The position numbers were made by a program, and so were the translations under genes. A stretch of 64,000 nucleotides of DNA from an uncultured Acidobacteriota bacterium. GTDB lineage: Bacteria; Acidobacteriota; UBA6911. The stretch spans positions 864,001-928,000 of the forward strand of contig CAWEJX010000020.1 in the NCBI GenBank assembly GCA_963809485.1, read 5' to 3'. This document shows positions 55,383 through 61,007 of the stretch, one piece after another; position 1 is the stretch's first letter, and each line of letters starts with the position of its first letter. The notes under the pieces are model-generated. The model made no database searches. It had not been told where the DNA came from and was given only the letters and a program-made list of their open reading frames with translations.

Positions 55383-56468
55383 ATGCTGGACGCCCGCATC
55401 AGGAAACAGCTTGGCTCCGGCAACGGGCACACCCTGGCCATTGATGTGACCTTTAGGGCGGGCAGCGGCGTCACGGTGCTCTTCGGATCCTCCGGAGCCG
55501 GCAAAACCAGCATCCTGCGTGCCATCGCCGGTATCCTCGCGCCGGACGAGGGCAGGATCACGCTCGACGAAACAGTGTTTTTCGATTCGTCTGCCGGCAT
55601 CAACCTGCCGATGCAGAAGCGCAAGGTGGGATACGTGTCTCAAAACCATGCGCTTTTCCCGCATTTAACCGCTGAGCAGAACGTCATGTACGGCATCCGG
55701 ACGCATTCGCGGCATTCGGCGCACGAGCGTGCGCGCGAGCTTCTTGATTTGCTGGGAATCCTGAAAACAGCGGAGAGCTATCCGCATGAATTATCCGGCG
55801 GCGAGCAGCAGCGTGTCGCCCTGGCCCGCGCCCTTGCCACGGATCCCGGGATAATGCTTCTGGATGAGCCCCTGTCGGCGGTCGATATCGCCACGCGCTC
55901 CCGGCTTGGGGAGGAGATCGCCGCAGTCCAGCAGCGAACCGGCATCCCTTTCCTTTATGTGACGCACAGCCACAATGAAGCCGTACACCTGGGCAACACG
56001 ATGATTGTCGTGGACGAAGGCAAGGTCGTGCAGGAAGGCCCCCCCCTGGAAATTTTTAACGCTCCCCGGACCGCCCCTGTAGCCAGGGTGGTCGGCGCGG
56101 AAAACGTCTTTGTGGGCAAAATCCTGGGCCACCAGCCCGAAGGCGGGATAACCGAAATCGACCTGAATTCCTGCCTGATCGAGGCTCCCTATAACGGATT
56201 GCCCATAGGAAATATGATCACGGTCGGGATCCGTTCGGAAGACATTATCGTCTCCCGGGAGCGTCTCACTCAAACCAGCGCCCGGAACGTGCTGCCGGGA
56301 GTGATCCGGAACATCCTTCACGATGTGGATAAAACGGAGCTGGTCGTGGGATGCGGCGTCGACTTCAAGGTCAGCGTGACACAGGCAGCAATCCAGGCGC
56401 TGAACCTTGAAATCGGATGCCCGGTCTACCTCCTGATCAAAGCCAGGGCCCTCCACCTGCTCGCGTGA
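55383..56468 (+). CDS. modC: Molybdate ABC transporter ATPase with TOBE domains
   Basis: GSSGAGKT, LSGGEQQR, LLDEP, SARNVL.G. Confidence 0.93.
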   Translation: MLDARIRKQLGSGNGHTLAIDVTFRAGSGVTVLFGSSGAGKTSILRAIAGILAPDEGRITLDETVFFDSSAGINLPMQKRKVGYVSQNHALFPHLTAEQNVMYGIRTHSRHSAHERARELLDLLGILKTAESYPHELSGGEQQRVALARALATDPGIMLLDEPLSAVDIATRSRLGEEIAAVQQRTGIPFLYVTHSHNEAVHLGNTMIVVDEGKVVQEGPPLEIFNAPRTAPVARVVGAENVFVGKILGHQPEGGITEIDLNSCLIEAPYNGLPIGNMITVGIRSEDIIVSRERLTQTSARNVLPGVIRNILHDVDKTELVVGCGVDFKVSVTQAAIQALNLEIGCPVYLLIKARALHLLA

Positions 56469-56499: not shown

Positions 56500-57039
56500 C
56501 TATTGCCCGGCATTCAATCGATTTGCCAGTTTGGTGCCATCCACCAGGTTTATGCTCGTAATCCCGTAGATCTGCCTGTCGTGAGAGCCGTCGCCCAGGA
56601 CAACCAGCCGGTAGGGCGCTTCCTTGCCTGAGAGAGGCCTGCCATCAACCTCCCAGACCAGCCAGGCCTGTTGATTGCTGCCCTGCGGCATCAGCTCGGC
56701 CAGAGAAAAGAAAACGCGGTATGAGTCGTGGGCCTGGATATAGACCAGGAATGTCAGGTCGTAATGCTTGGGGGTCTTCTCGACCTTGGGTTCGGCGGCT
56801 TTGATGAGCGAGATCAGCGGGACGCCTGTCGCCATCTGCTGCTGCCCGTCCTTGCCGGCCGAAAACCTGATAGTTTGAATTTCATTGGAGAATTGCTGCC
56901 TGACGTCCGGGACAGACCATTCACGAGGCTTGAGGACGTCGCCGCGCACCGTGACGGTCGTCGGCTCTTGGGCGAGTGCATACGATACTGTGAAGAGCAC
57001 TGCTACCGCGATTTTCGACACAACAGGGAAATAGCGCAT
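56500..57039 (-). CDS. Exported protein resembling the molybdopterin-dependent oxidoreductase (sulfite-oxidase-fold) domain
   Basis: Signal peptide, VTVRGDV..P, TGVPL..L, A.DSY...FS..EL, DG.PL...P.RLVV.GD; no obvious catalytic Cys. Confidence 0.6.
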   Translation of the reverse strand: MRYFPVVSKIAVAVLFTVSYALAQEPTTVTVRGDVLKPREWSVPDVRQQFSNEIQTIRFSAGKDGQQQMATGVPLISLIKAAEPKVEKTPKHYDLTFLVYIQAHDSYRVFFSLAELMPQGSNQQAWLVWEVDGRPLSGKEAPYRLVVLGDGSHDRQIYGITSINLVDGTKLANRLNAGQ

Positions 57040-57242
57040 GGACCGGCTCCTTTTCCAATAAGCAATACCATGCCACAAATCGGTTCGGCGATCCACACCC
57101 CAAGGGAAACCCTCGATAACCTCAGGTTTGCAGGTTGTGAGGCCTAACCTCAAAATATGTTATCGGGCTTTCCAAAGGGAGCCGTTGCCGGCTGTGGATA
57201 ATTTTGGGATTCATTCCGAAAAGAGACAGATATTGAGGAGGG

Positions 57243-57782
57243 CTAATACAGCTTGAACCAGATTCTGTAGTAGTTGTTGCCGAAACTCATGAGCGGCTTC
57301 GCGTCGTCCGCCGACACAACCAAAGCTATCCAGCCTTCCAGCGAGTCGCCGGGATAAAGCCGACCGCTAAGCTCAGGCTTTGGCTGAGAAACCGCCGGGC
57401 GGTCATACTGCCTGCCTTTTTCCGAAACTGCGGCAAACTGTTCGGCCCGAATGCCATAGCTCGGACCTCCGCCTCCCTTGTCGCCGTATTCAATGCGGAT
57501 CCGTACCGCAACAAATTCCATCCCTGCTTCAGGCGGTTTGTTGGACGGATTGGCTTTCACAAGCTCCCAGGCCTTTTCGCCCCGAAGAACCTCCAGAACC
57601 GTCATTCGCGCTTCGACGCTTTCAGTTCCGGTAACATACCCTTCCCCGATCGTGATCTTGCTTTTGACCGTAGCCCCAATTGCGGCAGCTTCATTCGCCG
57701 CAGGCGTCTGCGCCTGGAGCAAGCCTGCTCCCAAAATCAGCAGAATCAACGGAAAATATGCTTTTGTCATAAGAAGTTTCAT
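57243..57782 (-). CDS. Exported hypothetical protein (DUF4352-like beta sandwich)
   Basis: Signal peptide; N.PP..G.EFVAV, LYPG.S.EGWI pattern. Confidence 0.55.
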   Translation of the reverse strand: MKLLMTKAYFPLILLILGAGLLQAQTPAANEAAAIGATVKSKITIGEGYVTGTESVEARMTVLEVLRGEKAWELVKANPSNKPPEAGMEFVAVRIRIEYGDKGGGGPSYGIRAEQFAAVSEKGRQYDRPAVSQPKPELSGRLYPGDSLEGWIALVVSADDAKPLMSFGNNYYRIWFKLY

Positions 57783-57804
57783 AAGAGTCTCGTCTCTGAT
57801 TTTC

Positions 57805-57897
57805 AGGATCAAAGGATCAAAGGATCAGAGGGAAAAGCGCAATGATGACGCTGATGCTCCCCTTTGATCCTTGATTCCTTTGATCCTTGATCCCTTT
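57805..57897. repeat. Inverted GGATCAAA-repeat element
   Basis: (ggatcaaa)2 ggatcagaggg ... ccctttgatccttgattcctttgatccttgatccc; same family as 9100-9310. Confidence 0.7.
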
Positions 57898-57900
57898 TTC

Positions 57901-59703
57901 TCAGCGTCCCGACTGGGTCAAGGTCGCCCCGGTTACCTTCTTGACCGAGTGATTAGGATTTGGGGTTGCGCCTCCGAAAAGCCAGGTATATCCAGCCGTG
58001 CCGCCGGCAACAATGATGTCGATATGGCCCGGCGTCTGAACTACCGGGATCTTCCCCCCGGGCTTCAGGGCTTCCCTGAAGACAGGAACGGCTTCGGGAA
58101 TGAACTCGCCGGCATCCAGGCTTTCATTGATGGATTTTATGGCTCGCTGGTCTGCTCGTTCATAGGGCACTTTGGACTGCTCCCAGAGGAATTTCTGCAC
58201 GTCCTTCTTGCTCATGCCCTTTTCCTTCAGCCGCCGTGCGCACTCCGGGTGCATGACCACGGTCCAGACCGAAGTCCAGACGACCGTCGTCCCTCTCAGG
58301 TTGCTGATACGCTGGATTATGCTGTCCAGGATCCCGTCTTCAGTCCAGGGTGCGACGGCGCCGCCTCCTATAAGGCCCATCGTTCCGGCCGGCACTGTCG
58401 CCGTCATGACGACGCTGTCGCCGGGTTTGTATCCCTTTTCCACTGCATAGGATTCCCAAGGGCTTTCCGGATCCTCGGCAAAGGTCCAGAAAGTATAGGA
58501 GTTTATGCGCCCGGTTCCAGCCATGTCATTGACGTCCGGCCATGTCTGCCCCATGTTCATCGTAACCAGCTGTACGGCGCGCCCGATGGTGGCATTAGCC
58601 CGGAATCCGTATCCCAGAAGACCCATGCCGGAGTTCATGTTCAACTCCTTGCCAAGCGGTCCGCTGACAACGATGGCCGGGAACGAAGACGACGTGGACA
58701 TGCGCCACCAGGTGCCGTCATATTGGGGATCCGACAGGCCTTCGACAGCGGCGATTATGGCGGGCAGGTATTCCGGCCTGGCGCCTGCCATCACGGCGTT
58801 GATGGCAATCTTTTTGACCGTGGCGGTCCCCCTGCGCGGCGGCAGCGTACCGATGACTTCAGCGGGACTGCGGCTTGTGCCGGTCAGCATCCAGGCAACA
58901 GCCTGCGGGGTCGGCGGCACAACCGGAAGCCCGTCGCTCAACTGCTTCTCCATGAAAAACTGCGTGACAGCGTCCACGGCCATGTCCGAGCTGTTTGCCG
59001 TTACCTTGAACGAATCGGGAATGGCTTCCTTCTCTTTGATTTTCGGCTTGGCCTCTTCCTGGGTAGCCGGACGGGTCAGTGCTTCGACGACCTGGTCGAA
59101 ATATTTCTGCGCCAGATCGCCGGACATCTTGGCATCGATTCTGGACCTGTACCAGTCCCTTGCAGGCAGCACCACCATGCGCAGGCCGGGCAGGCCCACA
59201 TCCTCGGCCGCCATCTTCGCATCGTGCCGGAACTGATCGGTGGTGATAAGAACTCCCGGTTTCCCGAGTTTTTCCACTCTGAACGTGTCGTGGGAACCCC
59301 ACCACGTACAGGACCCTCAATCCGCTATCGTGTAAATGAACGCATCCGCGCTCTTCGCCACCTCCACGTACCATCCGTCCGCGGAATAGATCAGCCTGCC
59401 TCCTCCCTGACCACCTTGCGGCTTGGTGGTGCGCAGGACCTTTATGCCGGGAAATTTTTGCTTCAATAATTCTTCAAAGCGGTCCTGCAAAAATACGCCG
59501 CCTGTTTTCCAGTTGTCCATCAAAGCGACTGTCTTGCCATTCAGGTCCGGCAGTCGGGGGTTGATGCCCAATGTGGGCGGGGGAATGATTTCACCCAAAG
59601 GATTGAGCACTTCCACGGTAATCGCGGCCTTTTGGGGGCCGGCCCAGGAAATGCTTACAGCTAAAAGGAGTGCTGTCAGCAGAATCACTGTCCGTATTTT
59701 CAT
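57901..59703 (-). CDS. Exported UGSC-motif selenoprotein fused to a DGLPVVPPT-type domain (600 aa, Sec at TGA 59319-59317)
   Basis: ORFs 59317-59703 and 57901-59277 are in frame and joined by TIAD-TGA-GSCTWWGSHDTFR; SECIS-like hairpin follows. Confidence 0.85.
59284..59306 (-). promoter_or_regulatory. Candidate bacterial SECIS element
   Basis: CGUG-GUGGG-guu-CCCAC-ga-CACG beginning 10 nt after the UGA; G-first apical loop. Confidence 0.6.
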
Positions 59704-59934: not shown

Positions 59935-60579
59935 CTATTTCTTGCCTTCGGGACGGTCATCTTCGCTCATCTTCCTGAGTTCTTCCAGCGTGTCCAGTCT
60001 CGCACTGGGATTGATCTCCTTGCCGCACCGGAAGGCGTCCCCGAGATATTCCCCGATTGCGTAATAGGCAGGACCGCTGAATACAAAAGGCCGCACTTTG
60101 GATGGATCGGGCCTGCCGTCAACCAGGCATTCTTCCGAGACAAAGGATTCGACAATTTTCCCGACTATGAGTTCATGACTTCCGAGATTGAGGATCTGCA
60201 CCACCTCACAGGCGTGGTTGATGGGGCATTGCTCAATAAGCGGCGCGTTGGGCAGTTTGCCGAAAAATACCGTGAATTTGCAGTCGCCGGCCTTGTTTAT
60301 CCGTTTGCCGGAAGCCATGCCGCAGTAATCCGTTTCCCTGACCTGACCGACCGAAGGGACATTCACGGAAAAAACCATATGCTGCCGGACGCCCTTTAAA
60401 GAGTGCCGATGGTGCTGCAGGGCGATGGTGACCGACGGCGGAACGCTGGCGGCGACACCCGTCCACGCCACCGTGGTGAAATCGGGTTGGCCCTCCACAT
60501 TGACACCTATCATGATGGTCGGGTAAACACCCAGGATCGGCAGCGGACCTGCCTTGTGCTCCAGCCTTACTTTGCCCAT
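59935..60579 (-). CDS. Flavin reductase/flavoredoxin-family protein
   Basis: TVAWTG, FSVNVPS, DYCG..SG...K, APLIEQCP...C, GSH.L.VG.IV. Confidence 0.88.
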   Translation of the reverse strand: MGKVRLEHKAGPLPILGVYPTIMIGVNVEGQPDFTTVAWTGVAASVPPSVTIALQHHRHSLKGVRQHMVFSVNVPSVGQVRETDYCGMASGKRINKAGDCKFTVFFGKLPNAPLIEQCPINHACEVVQILNLGSHELIVGKIVESFVSEECLVDGRPDPSKVRPFVFSGPAYYAIGEYLGDAFRCGKEINPSARLDTLEELRKMSEDDRPEGKK

Positions 60580-60588
60580 TTCTCCTCC

Positions 60589-60930
60589 CTAAGATCGTCT
60601 CTTTTTATTTTCAGGAATCTTTGCTTTCAGAACATCCTCCGCCCAGTCCAGCGCGGCCATCATCCTCGGAAATCCTATTGGCGCTAAAGCCAAAATTATG
60701 GCATGGCGTATTTCCGCGGGCTCCACCCCTGCATCCAGGGCTTTGCGAACCTGCGACCGCACCGATCCTTCGGTGTGAGATCCTGTAGCCACGCCCAGTT
60801 TGACCAGGAGTTGTTCCCTCTCGCTCAGCGGCCCGAACTTCCGGCATTCGGCGGCAAGGTTTTCGTAGGCCTCTGTAATCTGCGGATTCCCTTCTGCAAA
60901 CTCGCGAAACCATTCCGGGACTTTTCTCAT
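60589..60930 (-). CDS. Carboxymuconolactone decarboxylase (CMD)-family protein
   Basis: GPL..RE..LVKLG.A, EGSV.S..RKAL.AG....EI.H, IGFP..MAA..W; lacks CxxC. Confidence 0.85.
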   Translation of the reverse strand: MRKVPEWFREFAEGNPQITEAYENLAAECRKFGPLSEREQLLVKLGVATGSHTEGSVRSQVRKALDAGVEPAEIRHAIILALAPIGFPRMMAALDWAEDVLKAKIPENKKRRS

Positions 60931-61007
60931 ATATCCTCCGATTGTAGAAAGGCGCATTATATTCTATATTTGGGCCGAGCTGCAGCCCGGAACTCAAAGG
61001 AGGTTGT

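Follow-up and report, generated by a model that had tools for sequence, protein, structure and literature searches.

The window analysed here is a stretch of 64,000 nucleotides from an uncultured Acidobacteriota bacterium (GTDB lineage UBA6911; assembly GCA_963809485.1, contig CAWEJX010000020.1, positions 864,001 to 928,000), and it carries on its minus strand a gene predicted to encode an exported selenoprotein, in which a UGSC domain is fused to a larger partner domain of no named family. Few predicted selenoproteins are as abundant in aquatic metagenomes as the UGSC proteins, for which, to our knowledge, no published function has appeared since 2007. The gene and the features within it, in window positions, are as follows.

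57901..59703, minus strand: the whole selenoprotein gene, 600 codons followed by a TGA stop at 57901-57903.
59641..59703, minus strand: signal-peptide-like N-terminus, codons 1-21 (MKIRTVILLTALLLAVSISWA), called by our own hydrophobicity rule.
59074..59610, minus strand: UGSC domain (Pfam PF24696), residues 32-210, lying across the selenocysteine (Sec) codon.
59317..59319, minus strand: in-frame TGA, predicted Sec codon 129, in the motif D-U-G-S-C.
59280..59310, minus strand: stem-loop resembling a selenocysteine insertion sequence (SECIS), with a GUU loop at 59295-59297, recognized by position, conservation and covariation.
57904..59070, minus strand: C-terminal partner domain, residues 212-600, with the motifs DGLPVVPPT, AINAVMAGARPEY and RANATIGRA.
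58780..58782, minus strand: codon 308, an Ala where the family has its conserved Cys (AINAVMAG-C-xPEY).

Two minus-strand open reading frames (ORFs), 59703-59317 (128 residues) and 59277-57901 (458 residues, with a GTG start at 59277), lie in the same frame with one TGA between them. An earlier interpretation made without database searches (the sequence-only reading) had taken the two for a single interrupted frame and had seen a UxxC motif, IAD-U-GSC, at the interruption; read-through translation bears out the former, and the latter is upheld by the Pfam UGSC domain, which spans the TGA. The read-through product is a protein of 600 residues, MKIRTVILLTALLLAVSISWAGPQ...AFIYTIAD-U-GSCTWWGSHDTFRVEKLGKPGV...GATLTQSGR, with the peptide IAD-U-GSCTWWGSHDTFR across the Sec site. 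Among 21 related loci from relatives' genomes and metagenome contigs, 17 cover this site, and all of them keep both the TGA and the peptide IADUGSCTWWGSH. These orthologs align to residues 1-600 at 73-96% identity, the protein being conserved on both sides of the TGA with synonymous variation around it, and the 14 codons from the TGA to the GTG are conserved at the protein level in 17 of 17 independent assemblies. An in-frame UGA kept in orthologs, with coding conservation on either side, is the pattern of a SelB-dependent selenoprotein, and it was found at every one of the 17 loci. The same site is a TGA in 41 other loci of this genome.

The public records seen annotate such genes as proteins of 430-490 residues that start just past the TGA, as expected if gene callers stop there, and no homolog terminating at the TGA was encountered. 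Where homologs cover the site, the sequence-only reading called for Sec or Cys to be aligned with the TGA, and both occur: TGA in 42 paralogs and the 17 orthologs, and Cys in P0161, P0172, P0201 and P0220 (CGxC) and also in L085 and L105. None of the 25 closest full-length homologs has Cys at the Sec position, which in these non-Sec proteins holds N, T or S. The idea that the family has no Cys forms was dropped, being true for these 25 and false for more distant ones. The closest non-Sec homologs (P0056-P0117) form a tight subfamily without a signal peptide, in which A-D-N-G-M-G-G-W-I-Q-C replaces the UGSC motif in 22 of 25 and the conserved Cys is displaced 8 residues downstream.

The genome (6.04 Mb, 21 contigs) encodes selA, selB, tRNA-Sec (anticodon TCA) and selD, so the Sec machinery on which the sequence-only reading depended is present. 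The selD gene (G000:C8:80982-81905, L011) itself has one in-frame TGA, and SelD is therefore probably a Sec-containing protein.

A hairpin with a G-first loop had been placed about 20 nucleotides past the UGA, and this too holds: a stem-loop with G in its apical loop follows shortly after the codon, and the first G of its GUU loop is the 20th nucleotide after the UGA. It is built from a 5-base-pair GUGGG/CCCAC upper stem, a 2-nucleotide bulge, a 5-base-pair lower stem and 2 additional pairs. Its sequence, CACGTGGTGGGGTTCCCACGAC, does not vary among the 17 ortholog loci except for ACG>ACA in two, and the synonymous sites of its GGT, TCC, CAC and GAC codons do not change, while flanking synonymous sites vary. 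Under a strict rule (perfect stem of at least 5 base pairs; loop of 3-6 nucleotides with G in the first two positions; loop start 15-24 nucleotides after the codon), such hairpins follow the site in 28 of 42 TGA paralogs and 1 of 10 non-TGA paralogs, against 11.4% of 27597 control codon positions within the same paralog genes; with a stem of at least 6 base pairs the figures become 22 of 42, 0 of 10 and 4.9%.

Covariation was assessed in an alignment of 44 UGSC genes from many phyla, comprising the window gene and 43 chosen by us from 72 motif-site TGAs. RNAalifold returned a 5-base-pair core with compensatory changes in four of the five pairs, one of which is G-C in 27 and C-G in 15 of the 44 genes. 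Over an 8-base-pair stem 86.6% of cells pair, compared with 75.8% in shuffles (a value as high was reached by 0 of 500), and pairing falls to 20-47% of cells when the 3' partner is slid. No Rfam family matches at the SECIS site. On these computations the frame encodes one predicted 600-residue selenoprotein, with UGA-129 decoded as Sec with the aid of the downstream SECIS hairpin. Metatranscriptome contigs from three libraries cover parts of the gene; one (X18 record 2) corresponds to 59133-59307 with 1 difference, and the others are 95-97% alike to the gene and so come from relatives. None of the contigs in the three libraries bridges the TGA, and with DNA carry-over possible they neither show nor refute expression.

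The UGSC domain scores 88.5 bits against PF24696 (E 7.5e-25; gathering cut-off 25), which places it within the family, and with a canonical standalone UGSC protein it shares 30% identity (E 8e-21). Its IAD-U-GSC aligns with the canonical AD-U-GSC and with 58 TGA sites in other phyla. Sequence searches of the PDB returned no credible relative for UGSC, the standalone protein included; UGSC was reportedly proposed in 2008 to be a thioredoxin-fold oxidoreductase, in which the redox motif would sit at the N-terminal end of a helix. Taken singly, the window gene is a putative divergent, fused and exported member of a known selenoprotein family.

The partner domain, the last 389 residues, has no match in Pfam at E<=10, no credible match in NCBIfam, and only chance matches (de novo TIM barrels, Dps) in PDB profile searches. 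Compared with 1.84 billion representative sequences it finds 4306 at E<=1e-3 and 762 at E<=1e-30; ten of its clusters were looked up and all are 'hypothetical protein', one cluster being named 'UGSC family (seleno)protein'. The best 150 representatives divide into 55 standalone proteins (~340-380 residues), 75 that start shortly past the TGA position, as mis-called Sec forms are expected to do, 17 with a long N-terminus and 3 fragments. Ten of the long-N-terminus proteins were scanned, of which eight contain a UGSC domain and two are tandem partner domains. Two stretches that each match the partner domain are seen in P0130, P0139, P0148, P0186 and P0238 (~710-740 residues); both copies in P0139 have a MAGC motif, and P0130 and P0139, the two scanned, contain no Pfam domain.

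The association between the two domains was followed across phyla in 80 loci from species genomes, found with an alignment of standalone partner forms, whose flanks were searched with six UGSC domains. The lineages include Binatia, Methylomirabilota/Rokubacteria, Chloroflexota, Beta- and Deltaproteobacteria, Poribacteria, Nitrospinota, a haloarchaeon and a Bacillaceae isolate. In 70 of the 80 the partner-domain gene has a UGSC domain within 5 kb, as an in-frame fusion in 12, a separate upstream gene in 39, a separate downstream gene in 18 and on the opposite strand in 1; the motif carries TGA in 58 of these 70 and Cys in 4, and lies outside the matched stretch in 8. Of the ten loci without a UGSC match, two have a thioredoxin-like N-terminal fusion and one is cut by a contig end. 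In Acidobacteriota outside the genus a standalone UGSC selenoprotein gene stands beside the partner gene in 5 of 6 loci, where the partner domain either stands alone and ends in a CxDGTCEL tail or carries a thioredoxin-like CPTC domain. Over all loci, such thioredoxin-like fusions are L051, L049, L111 and L113. The sequence-only reading had stated that the partner domain is often encoded by a separate neighbouring gene, and this holds, a separate UGSC neighbour being found in 58 of the 80 loci and in those 5 of 6. Its further claim that the fusion links the two domains stands as regards the link, which recurs at 70 of 80 loci; the fusion is not its first sign, since adjacency already makes the connection across phyla and a fusion was in print in 2008. 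UGSC and partner domain make up a conserved module, of which the window gene is the fused form. Standalone partner proteins that end in C-x-D-G-T-C-E-L (L046, L047, L050, from Acidobacteriota outside the genus) carry in this tail a possible further type of built-in redox module, making three with UGSC and the thioredoxin-like fusion. That the partner domain is paired with UGSC, with a CPTC thioredoxin-like domain or with a Cys-rich tail points to thiol or selenol chemistry at its conserved Cys.

The gene is one of many of its kind. A tblastn search of the genome with the read-through protein gave 62 matches, of which 52 loci cover the motif site; the codon exactly at the site is TGA in 42, the window gene included, and another in 10. 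On the lengths of their two parts, 36 of the 42 TGA paralogs look intact, and six are truncated or have extra stops. The motif takes the forms UGSC, UGTC, UGGC, UDGC, UDSC, USTC, USVC, USLC, USSC, USQC, UHGC, UWGC and UPGC. The nearest paralog of the window gene is 47% identical to it, and in a tree of the paralogs (loci of at least 400 residues, with C13:46037 and C4:67491 dropped) the Sec or non-Sec state switches at least five times; the family reads as one of old, diverse copies. Two fragments (G000:C13:45539-46043 and G000:C4:67248-67599) contain several in-frame TGAs or stops, one reading GG-U-U-GG, and are probably decayed copies. Three tandem paralogs at G000:C4:341622-348040 have the motif UGAA, with Sec and no Cys at +3, and all three have Cys at partner position 308; the Cys-type database proteins P0200/P0293 and P0230 likewise have no +3 Cys, and Cys-308 is present.

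All 24 same-genus genomes sampled have such genes (9-33 matches each, mostly with one TGA, among the best 32 candidates scored), compared with any match at all in 2 of 16 other genomes of the class. Co-assembly does not account for the copy numbers, because 36 matches, 30 of them with exactly one TGA, occur in a genome of the genus assembled as a single 6.9-Mb contig. Across the phylum, where the best 4 candidates per genome were scored, 29 of 301 genomes match at E<=1e-20; matches outside the window's taxonomic family are to the partner domain only, and those in G100, from another genus of the same family, bear TGA and cover the UGSC domain. The selenoproteome appears to be dominated by this one family, since three other selenoprotein families yield a single TGA match in 35 (1 of 24 Molybdopterin, 0 of 4 CMD and 0 of 7 AhpC-TSA matches). 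The sole TGA-containing Molybdopterin match, G000:C20:1207473-1208783, may be a selenoprotein of the formate dehydrogenase type.

Export is suggested by the N-terminus, where a basic n-region and a hydrophobic stretch of ~15 residues (h-region hydrophobicity mean 3.06 under our own n/h-region rule) are followed by S-W-A at the -3/-1 region before Gly-22. Each of the 15 orthologs whose N-terminus is complete has, to our reading, the layout of a signal peptide in sequences that are unrelated. Among the paralogs 40 of 52 pass the same rule, namely 34 of the 40 Sec loci that could be assessed and 6 of the 10 without Sec, and some have lipobox-like N-termini. Two TGA paralogs (G000:C4:293827-295591 and G000:C12:202393-204229) carry twin-arginine signals (SRRAFL..., SRRAFF...) rather than the Sec-pathway type, which implies that their products would cross the membrane already folded. 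Standalone modules in other phyla and NGMG-type paralogs have no N-terminal hydrophobic segment, so export is best seen as a derived trait of the expansion. The genome encodes one DsbD, a possible route for reducing power.

The conserved Cys of the partner domain, Cys-308, is found in 50 of 55 standalone partner domains and also in the thioredoxin-fused and tail-bearing forms; the window gene and its clade have Ala (the fused, tail-bearing and clade forms were compared over loci of at least 400 residues, as for the tree). In 114 full-length sequences surveyed at residues 129 and 308, those with [U/C]xxC have Ala-308 in 36 cases and Cys-308 in 5, and those with [U/C] and no +3 Cys have Ala-308 in none and Cys-308 in 6, the latter from three lineages that include the tandem UGAA trio. 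Sequences with neither U nor C at the motif have Ala-308 in 57 cases and Cys-308 in 10. This pattern is as expected if the two residues were to meet in the fold and form a redox pair, a correlation among kin and not a proof. A strict mutual exclusion of UxxC and Cys-308 was considered and dropped, as five sequences have both and many TGA-cut forms have Cys-308.

We consider that these observations are best explained, with a probability of roughly 0.6, by an exported and fused UGSC/partner selenoprotein with Sec at residue 129 that acts in the periplasm as a self-contained selenol/thiol oxidoreductase on small organic substrates. The UGSC module would serve the partner domain as its dedicated source of redox chemistry or of a nucleophile, and the pair a two-component oxidoreductase, here fused. 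Sec-129 and Cys-132 would form the sole redox centre, since residue 308 is Ala in this clade, and would work at the substrate site of the partner domain; once the protein is exported, re-reduction of the Se-S bond would draw on the cytoplasm, for example by way of the single DsbD. The paralogs would differ in substrate, with neighbouring genes pointing to the catabolism of heterocycles, aldehydes and organic acids.

The genomic surroundings from which substrates may be guessed begin with three minus-strand genes.

57243..57812, minus strand: gene for a DUF4352-like exported protein of 189 residues, downstream of the selenoprotein gene (Pfam PF11611, E 9.3e-5, 23.1 bits, below the cut-off of 25.9).
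59935..60579, minus strand: Flavin_Reduct gene, upstream of the selenoprotein gene.
60589..60957, minus strand: CMD/AhpD-like gene, upstream of the selenoprotein gene.

A DUF4352-like homolog also follows six other family loci in the genome and five orthologous loci, and the upstream Flavin_Reduct and CMD genes are kept in the ortholog loci L028 and L016. Paralog islands elsewhere in the genome contain molybdenum and flavin adenine dinucleotide (FAD) subunits of the xanthine dehydrogenase family, several of them directly upstream on the same strand, as well as aldehyde:ferredoxin oxidoreductases, Tat-signal FAD oxidoreductases and coenzyme A (CoA)-transferases III. Enoyl-CoA hydratases and luciferase-like monooxygenases are found among the neighbours at 85 cross-phylum loci. 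Such generic catabolic neighbours suggest small organic substrates and no more.

Further downstream in the window, positions 56500-57153 encode a small exported protein with a borderline Oxidored_molyb match (24.2 bits against a cut-off of 24), and beside it positions 55383-56468 encode a ModC-like ATP-binding cassette (ABC) ATPase with a TOBE domain. The intergenic stretch 57805-57887, between the selenoprotein and DUF4352-like genes, holds a 28-nucleotide inverted repeat, 86% complementary, with tandem 8-nucleotide units (AGGATCAA). A 15-mer of this repeat has 14 occurrences at ~9 places in the genome, so the stretch looks like a small dispersed element resembling a repetitive extragenic palindrome (REP). 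Rfam gave only sub-threshold microRNA-like matches to this hairpin, and a promoter and terminator scan did no better than on shuffled sequences.

Several results weigh against the exported oxidoreductase. The NCBIfam model NF041046 scores the window domain at 74.7 bits, below its equivalog cut-off of 125, making it a divergent relative rather than an equivalog; the standalone UGSC protein L051:2386-2934 and the fused Cys form P0172 reach 155.7 and 133.1 bits. The folding energy of the 76-nucleotide SECIS region is not unusual (z = -0.36, and z = -1.65 in a second computation), so support for the hairpin comes from position, conservation and covariation and not from energy, and 14 of the 42 TGA paralogs fail the strict hairpin rule. 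Signal-peptide calls were made with a crude rule of our own and reading by eye, and the counts include paralogs and kin, which are not independent of one another. The conserved gene neighbourhood across phyla gives a weak and generic signal, TctC occurring at 14 of 85 loci and MmgE/PrpD and CoA-transferase III at 8 each. Finally, 57 of the 114 full-length homologs have neither U or C at the motif nor Cys-308; the scaffold would therefore also have redox-independent uses, which weakens redox chemistry as the essence of the family.

The alternative that survives best, though we judge it unlikely, accepts an exported selenoprotein and makes UxxC, together with Cys-308 in relatives, a site for binding or transferring soft metals, metalloids or chalcogens, or part of a redox-gated binding protein, so that the family would handle Se, S, As, Hg or similar elements in the periplasm. 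Forms with two to three Cys or Sec residues (UxxC plus Cys-308) may resemble metalloid-binding thiolate sites of the ArsD/MerR type, and dozens of exported paralogs bring to mind the expansions of TctC/Bug solute-binding proteins; a rhodanese gene, the molybdate-type ABC ATPase and the small Oxidored_molyb-like exported protein also lie nearby in the window. The clade of the window gene nevertheless has no Cys-308, metal-resistance genes do not recur beside the module in the 85 loci, and the module in its ancestral form lacks a signal peptide and is surrounded by CoA-transferase, hydratase and PrpD-type genes. The many invariant polar residues of the 390-residue partner domain fit a catalytic pocket.

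Next in standing, and likewise improbable, is that the protein contains Sec but is held in the inner membrane by an N-terminal segment that is not cleaved, or stays in the cytoplasm. Out-of-genus relatives and NGMG-type paralogs, which have no such segment, are evidently cytoplasmic. Yet the signal-peptide layout persists in all 15 complete orthologs despite their differing sequences, the 40 of 52 paralogs that pass the rule include lipobox-like and twin-arginine variants, the adjoining DUF4352-like gene product is also exported, and an anchored form would face outward anyway. That the TGA is a true stop, leaving a 128-residue exported fragment and a 458-residue protein begun at the GTG at 59277, or marks a pseudogene or assembly error, might be argued from the splitting of the gene in all public records seen (430-490 residues) and from a final stop codon that is also TGA, but is very unlikely given a Pfam domain that crosses the codon, 14 following codons conserved as protein in 17 of 17 assemblies that all have TGA, TGA at the site in 42 paralogs, 30 copies in the closed genome and 58 loci of other phyla, the enrichment and covariation of the hairpin that follows, and the presence of the Sec machinery.

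A predicted set of 30-40 exported Sec paralogs throughout a genus would revise ideas of the size that a bacterial selenoproteome can reach and of how far one family can dominate it, and would put selenium chemistry outside the cytoplasm of a wetland and soil bacterium. Standard annotation splits every such gene, so that the biology of the family is invisible in public records. A near-obligatory partner for UGSC also offers a concrete two-protein system for expression and assay. A bolder proposal, which we put forward tentatively and with more doubt than belief, is that one Acidobacteriota genus keeps its Sec machinery almost only for 30-40 exported, substrate-diversified selenoenzymes per genome, and that UGSC is the Sec subunit of a widespread two-component reductase whose catalytic partner is the unnamed AINAVMAGC domain of 350-390 residues, the nucleophile having moved here from the partner Cys to the Sec of the fused module. 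Were this so, no larger expansion of a single selenoprotein family would have been seen in a prokaryote, and the selenoproteome would be extracytoplasmic. Neither the paralog expansion nor the export of UGSC proteins was found among the listed matches of our searches of openly available main texts. What we did not find in print comprises the near-universal UGSC-partner module, the interchangeable redox modules with the Cys-308 pattern and, above all, the predicted genus-wide set of 30-40 exported Sec paralogs.

In comparison with known systems, the standalone UGSC proteins (NF041046, PF24696; Zhang & Gladyshev 2007/2008) have in common with the window protein the domain, the D-U-G-S-C motif and the position and shape of the SECIS element. 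They differ in being ~150-190 residues long and without a signal peptide, whereas the window protein is divergent, is fused to the partner domain and has an export signal in front. A strong bias of Sec over Cys is also common to both, at 58 to 4 in the loci examined here and 255 to 21 for UGSC in the GOS data (PMC2398784, Table 2). The relevant passages of two further papers (PMC13188914, PMC9312934) assign no function to UGSC proteins. Closest in architecture is the 'UGSC/Unknown_1 fusion' (Zhang & Gladyshev 2008, PLoS Genet, Fig. S1A; PMC2398784), in which UGSC is joined to a domain that carries a conserved Cys and also exists alone, as here. Unknown_1 is likely the partner domain described in this work, matched by description; in the passages of that paper retrieved by term searches, export of UGSC proteins, adjacency of separate genes and paralog expansion were not found.

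As to scale, the largest bacterial selenoproteomes reported in PMC9312934 and PMC13188914 are those of Syntrophobacter fumaroxidans (39), the Olavius algarvensis delta-1 symbiont (at least 57) and a metagenome-assembled genome of Methylomirabilota (63), with 1-12 selenoprotein genes per family in the Olavius data set (PMC1976440). The total here is similar, and one family alone gives 36-42, plus selD and one Molybdopterin match.

For possible working rather than homology, the glycine and D-proline reductases provide a likeness. In GrdA with GrdB, and in PrdB, a small U/C redox pair, nearly always with Sec, works for a larger component that binds the substrate, and a dithiol system recycles the pair. 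These enzymes are cytoplasmic and use a pyruvoyl group, of which no like feature was seen in the window protein, and no paralog matches GRDB (PF07355), the only match in the genome being the unrelated locus C20:1216512. Periplasmic thioredoxin-fused reductases fed by DsbD, of the PilB/MsrAB type, likewise combine an exported catalytic domain with its own redox module and draw their electrons across the membrane, and the partner domain too has a thioredoxin-like CPTC fusion (L051). In the window protein, by contrast, the redox module is UGSC with a predicted Sec, the catalytic domain is unrelated, and supply through DsbD is a proposal that would give this exported selenoprotein the same transmembrane source of electrons.

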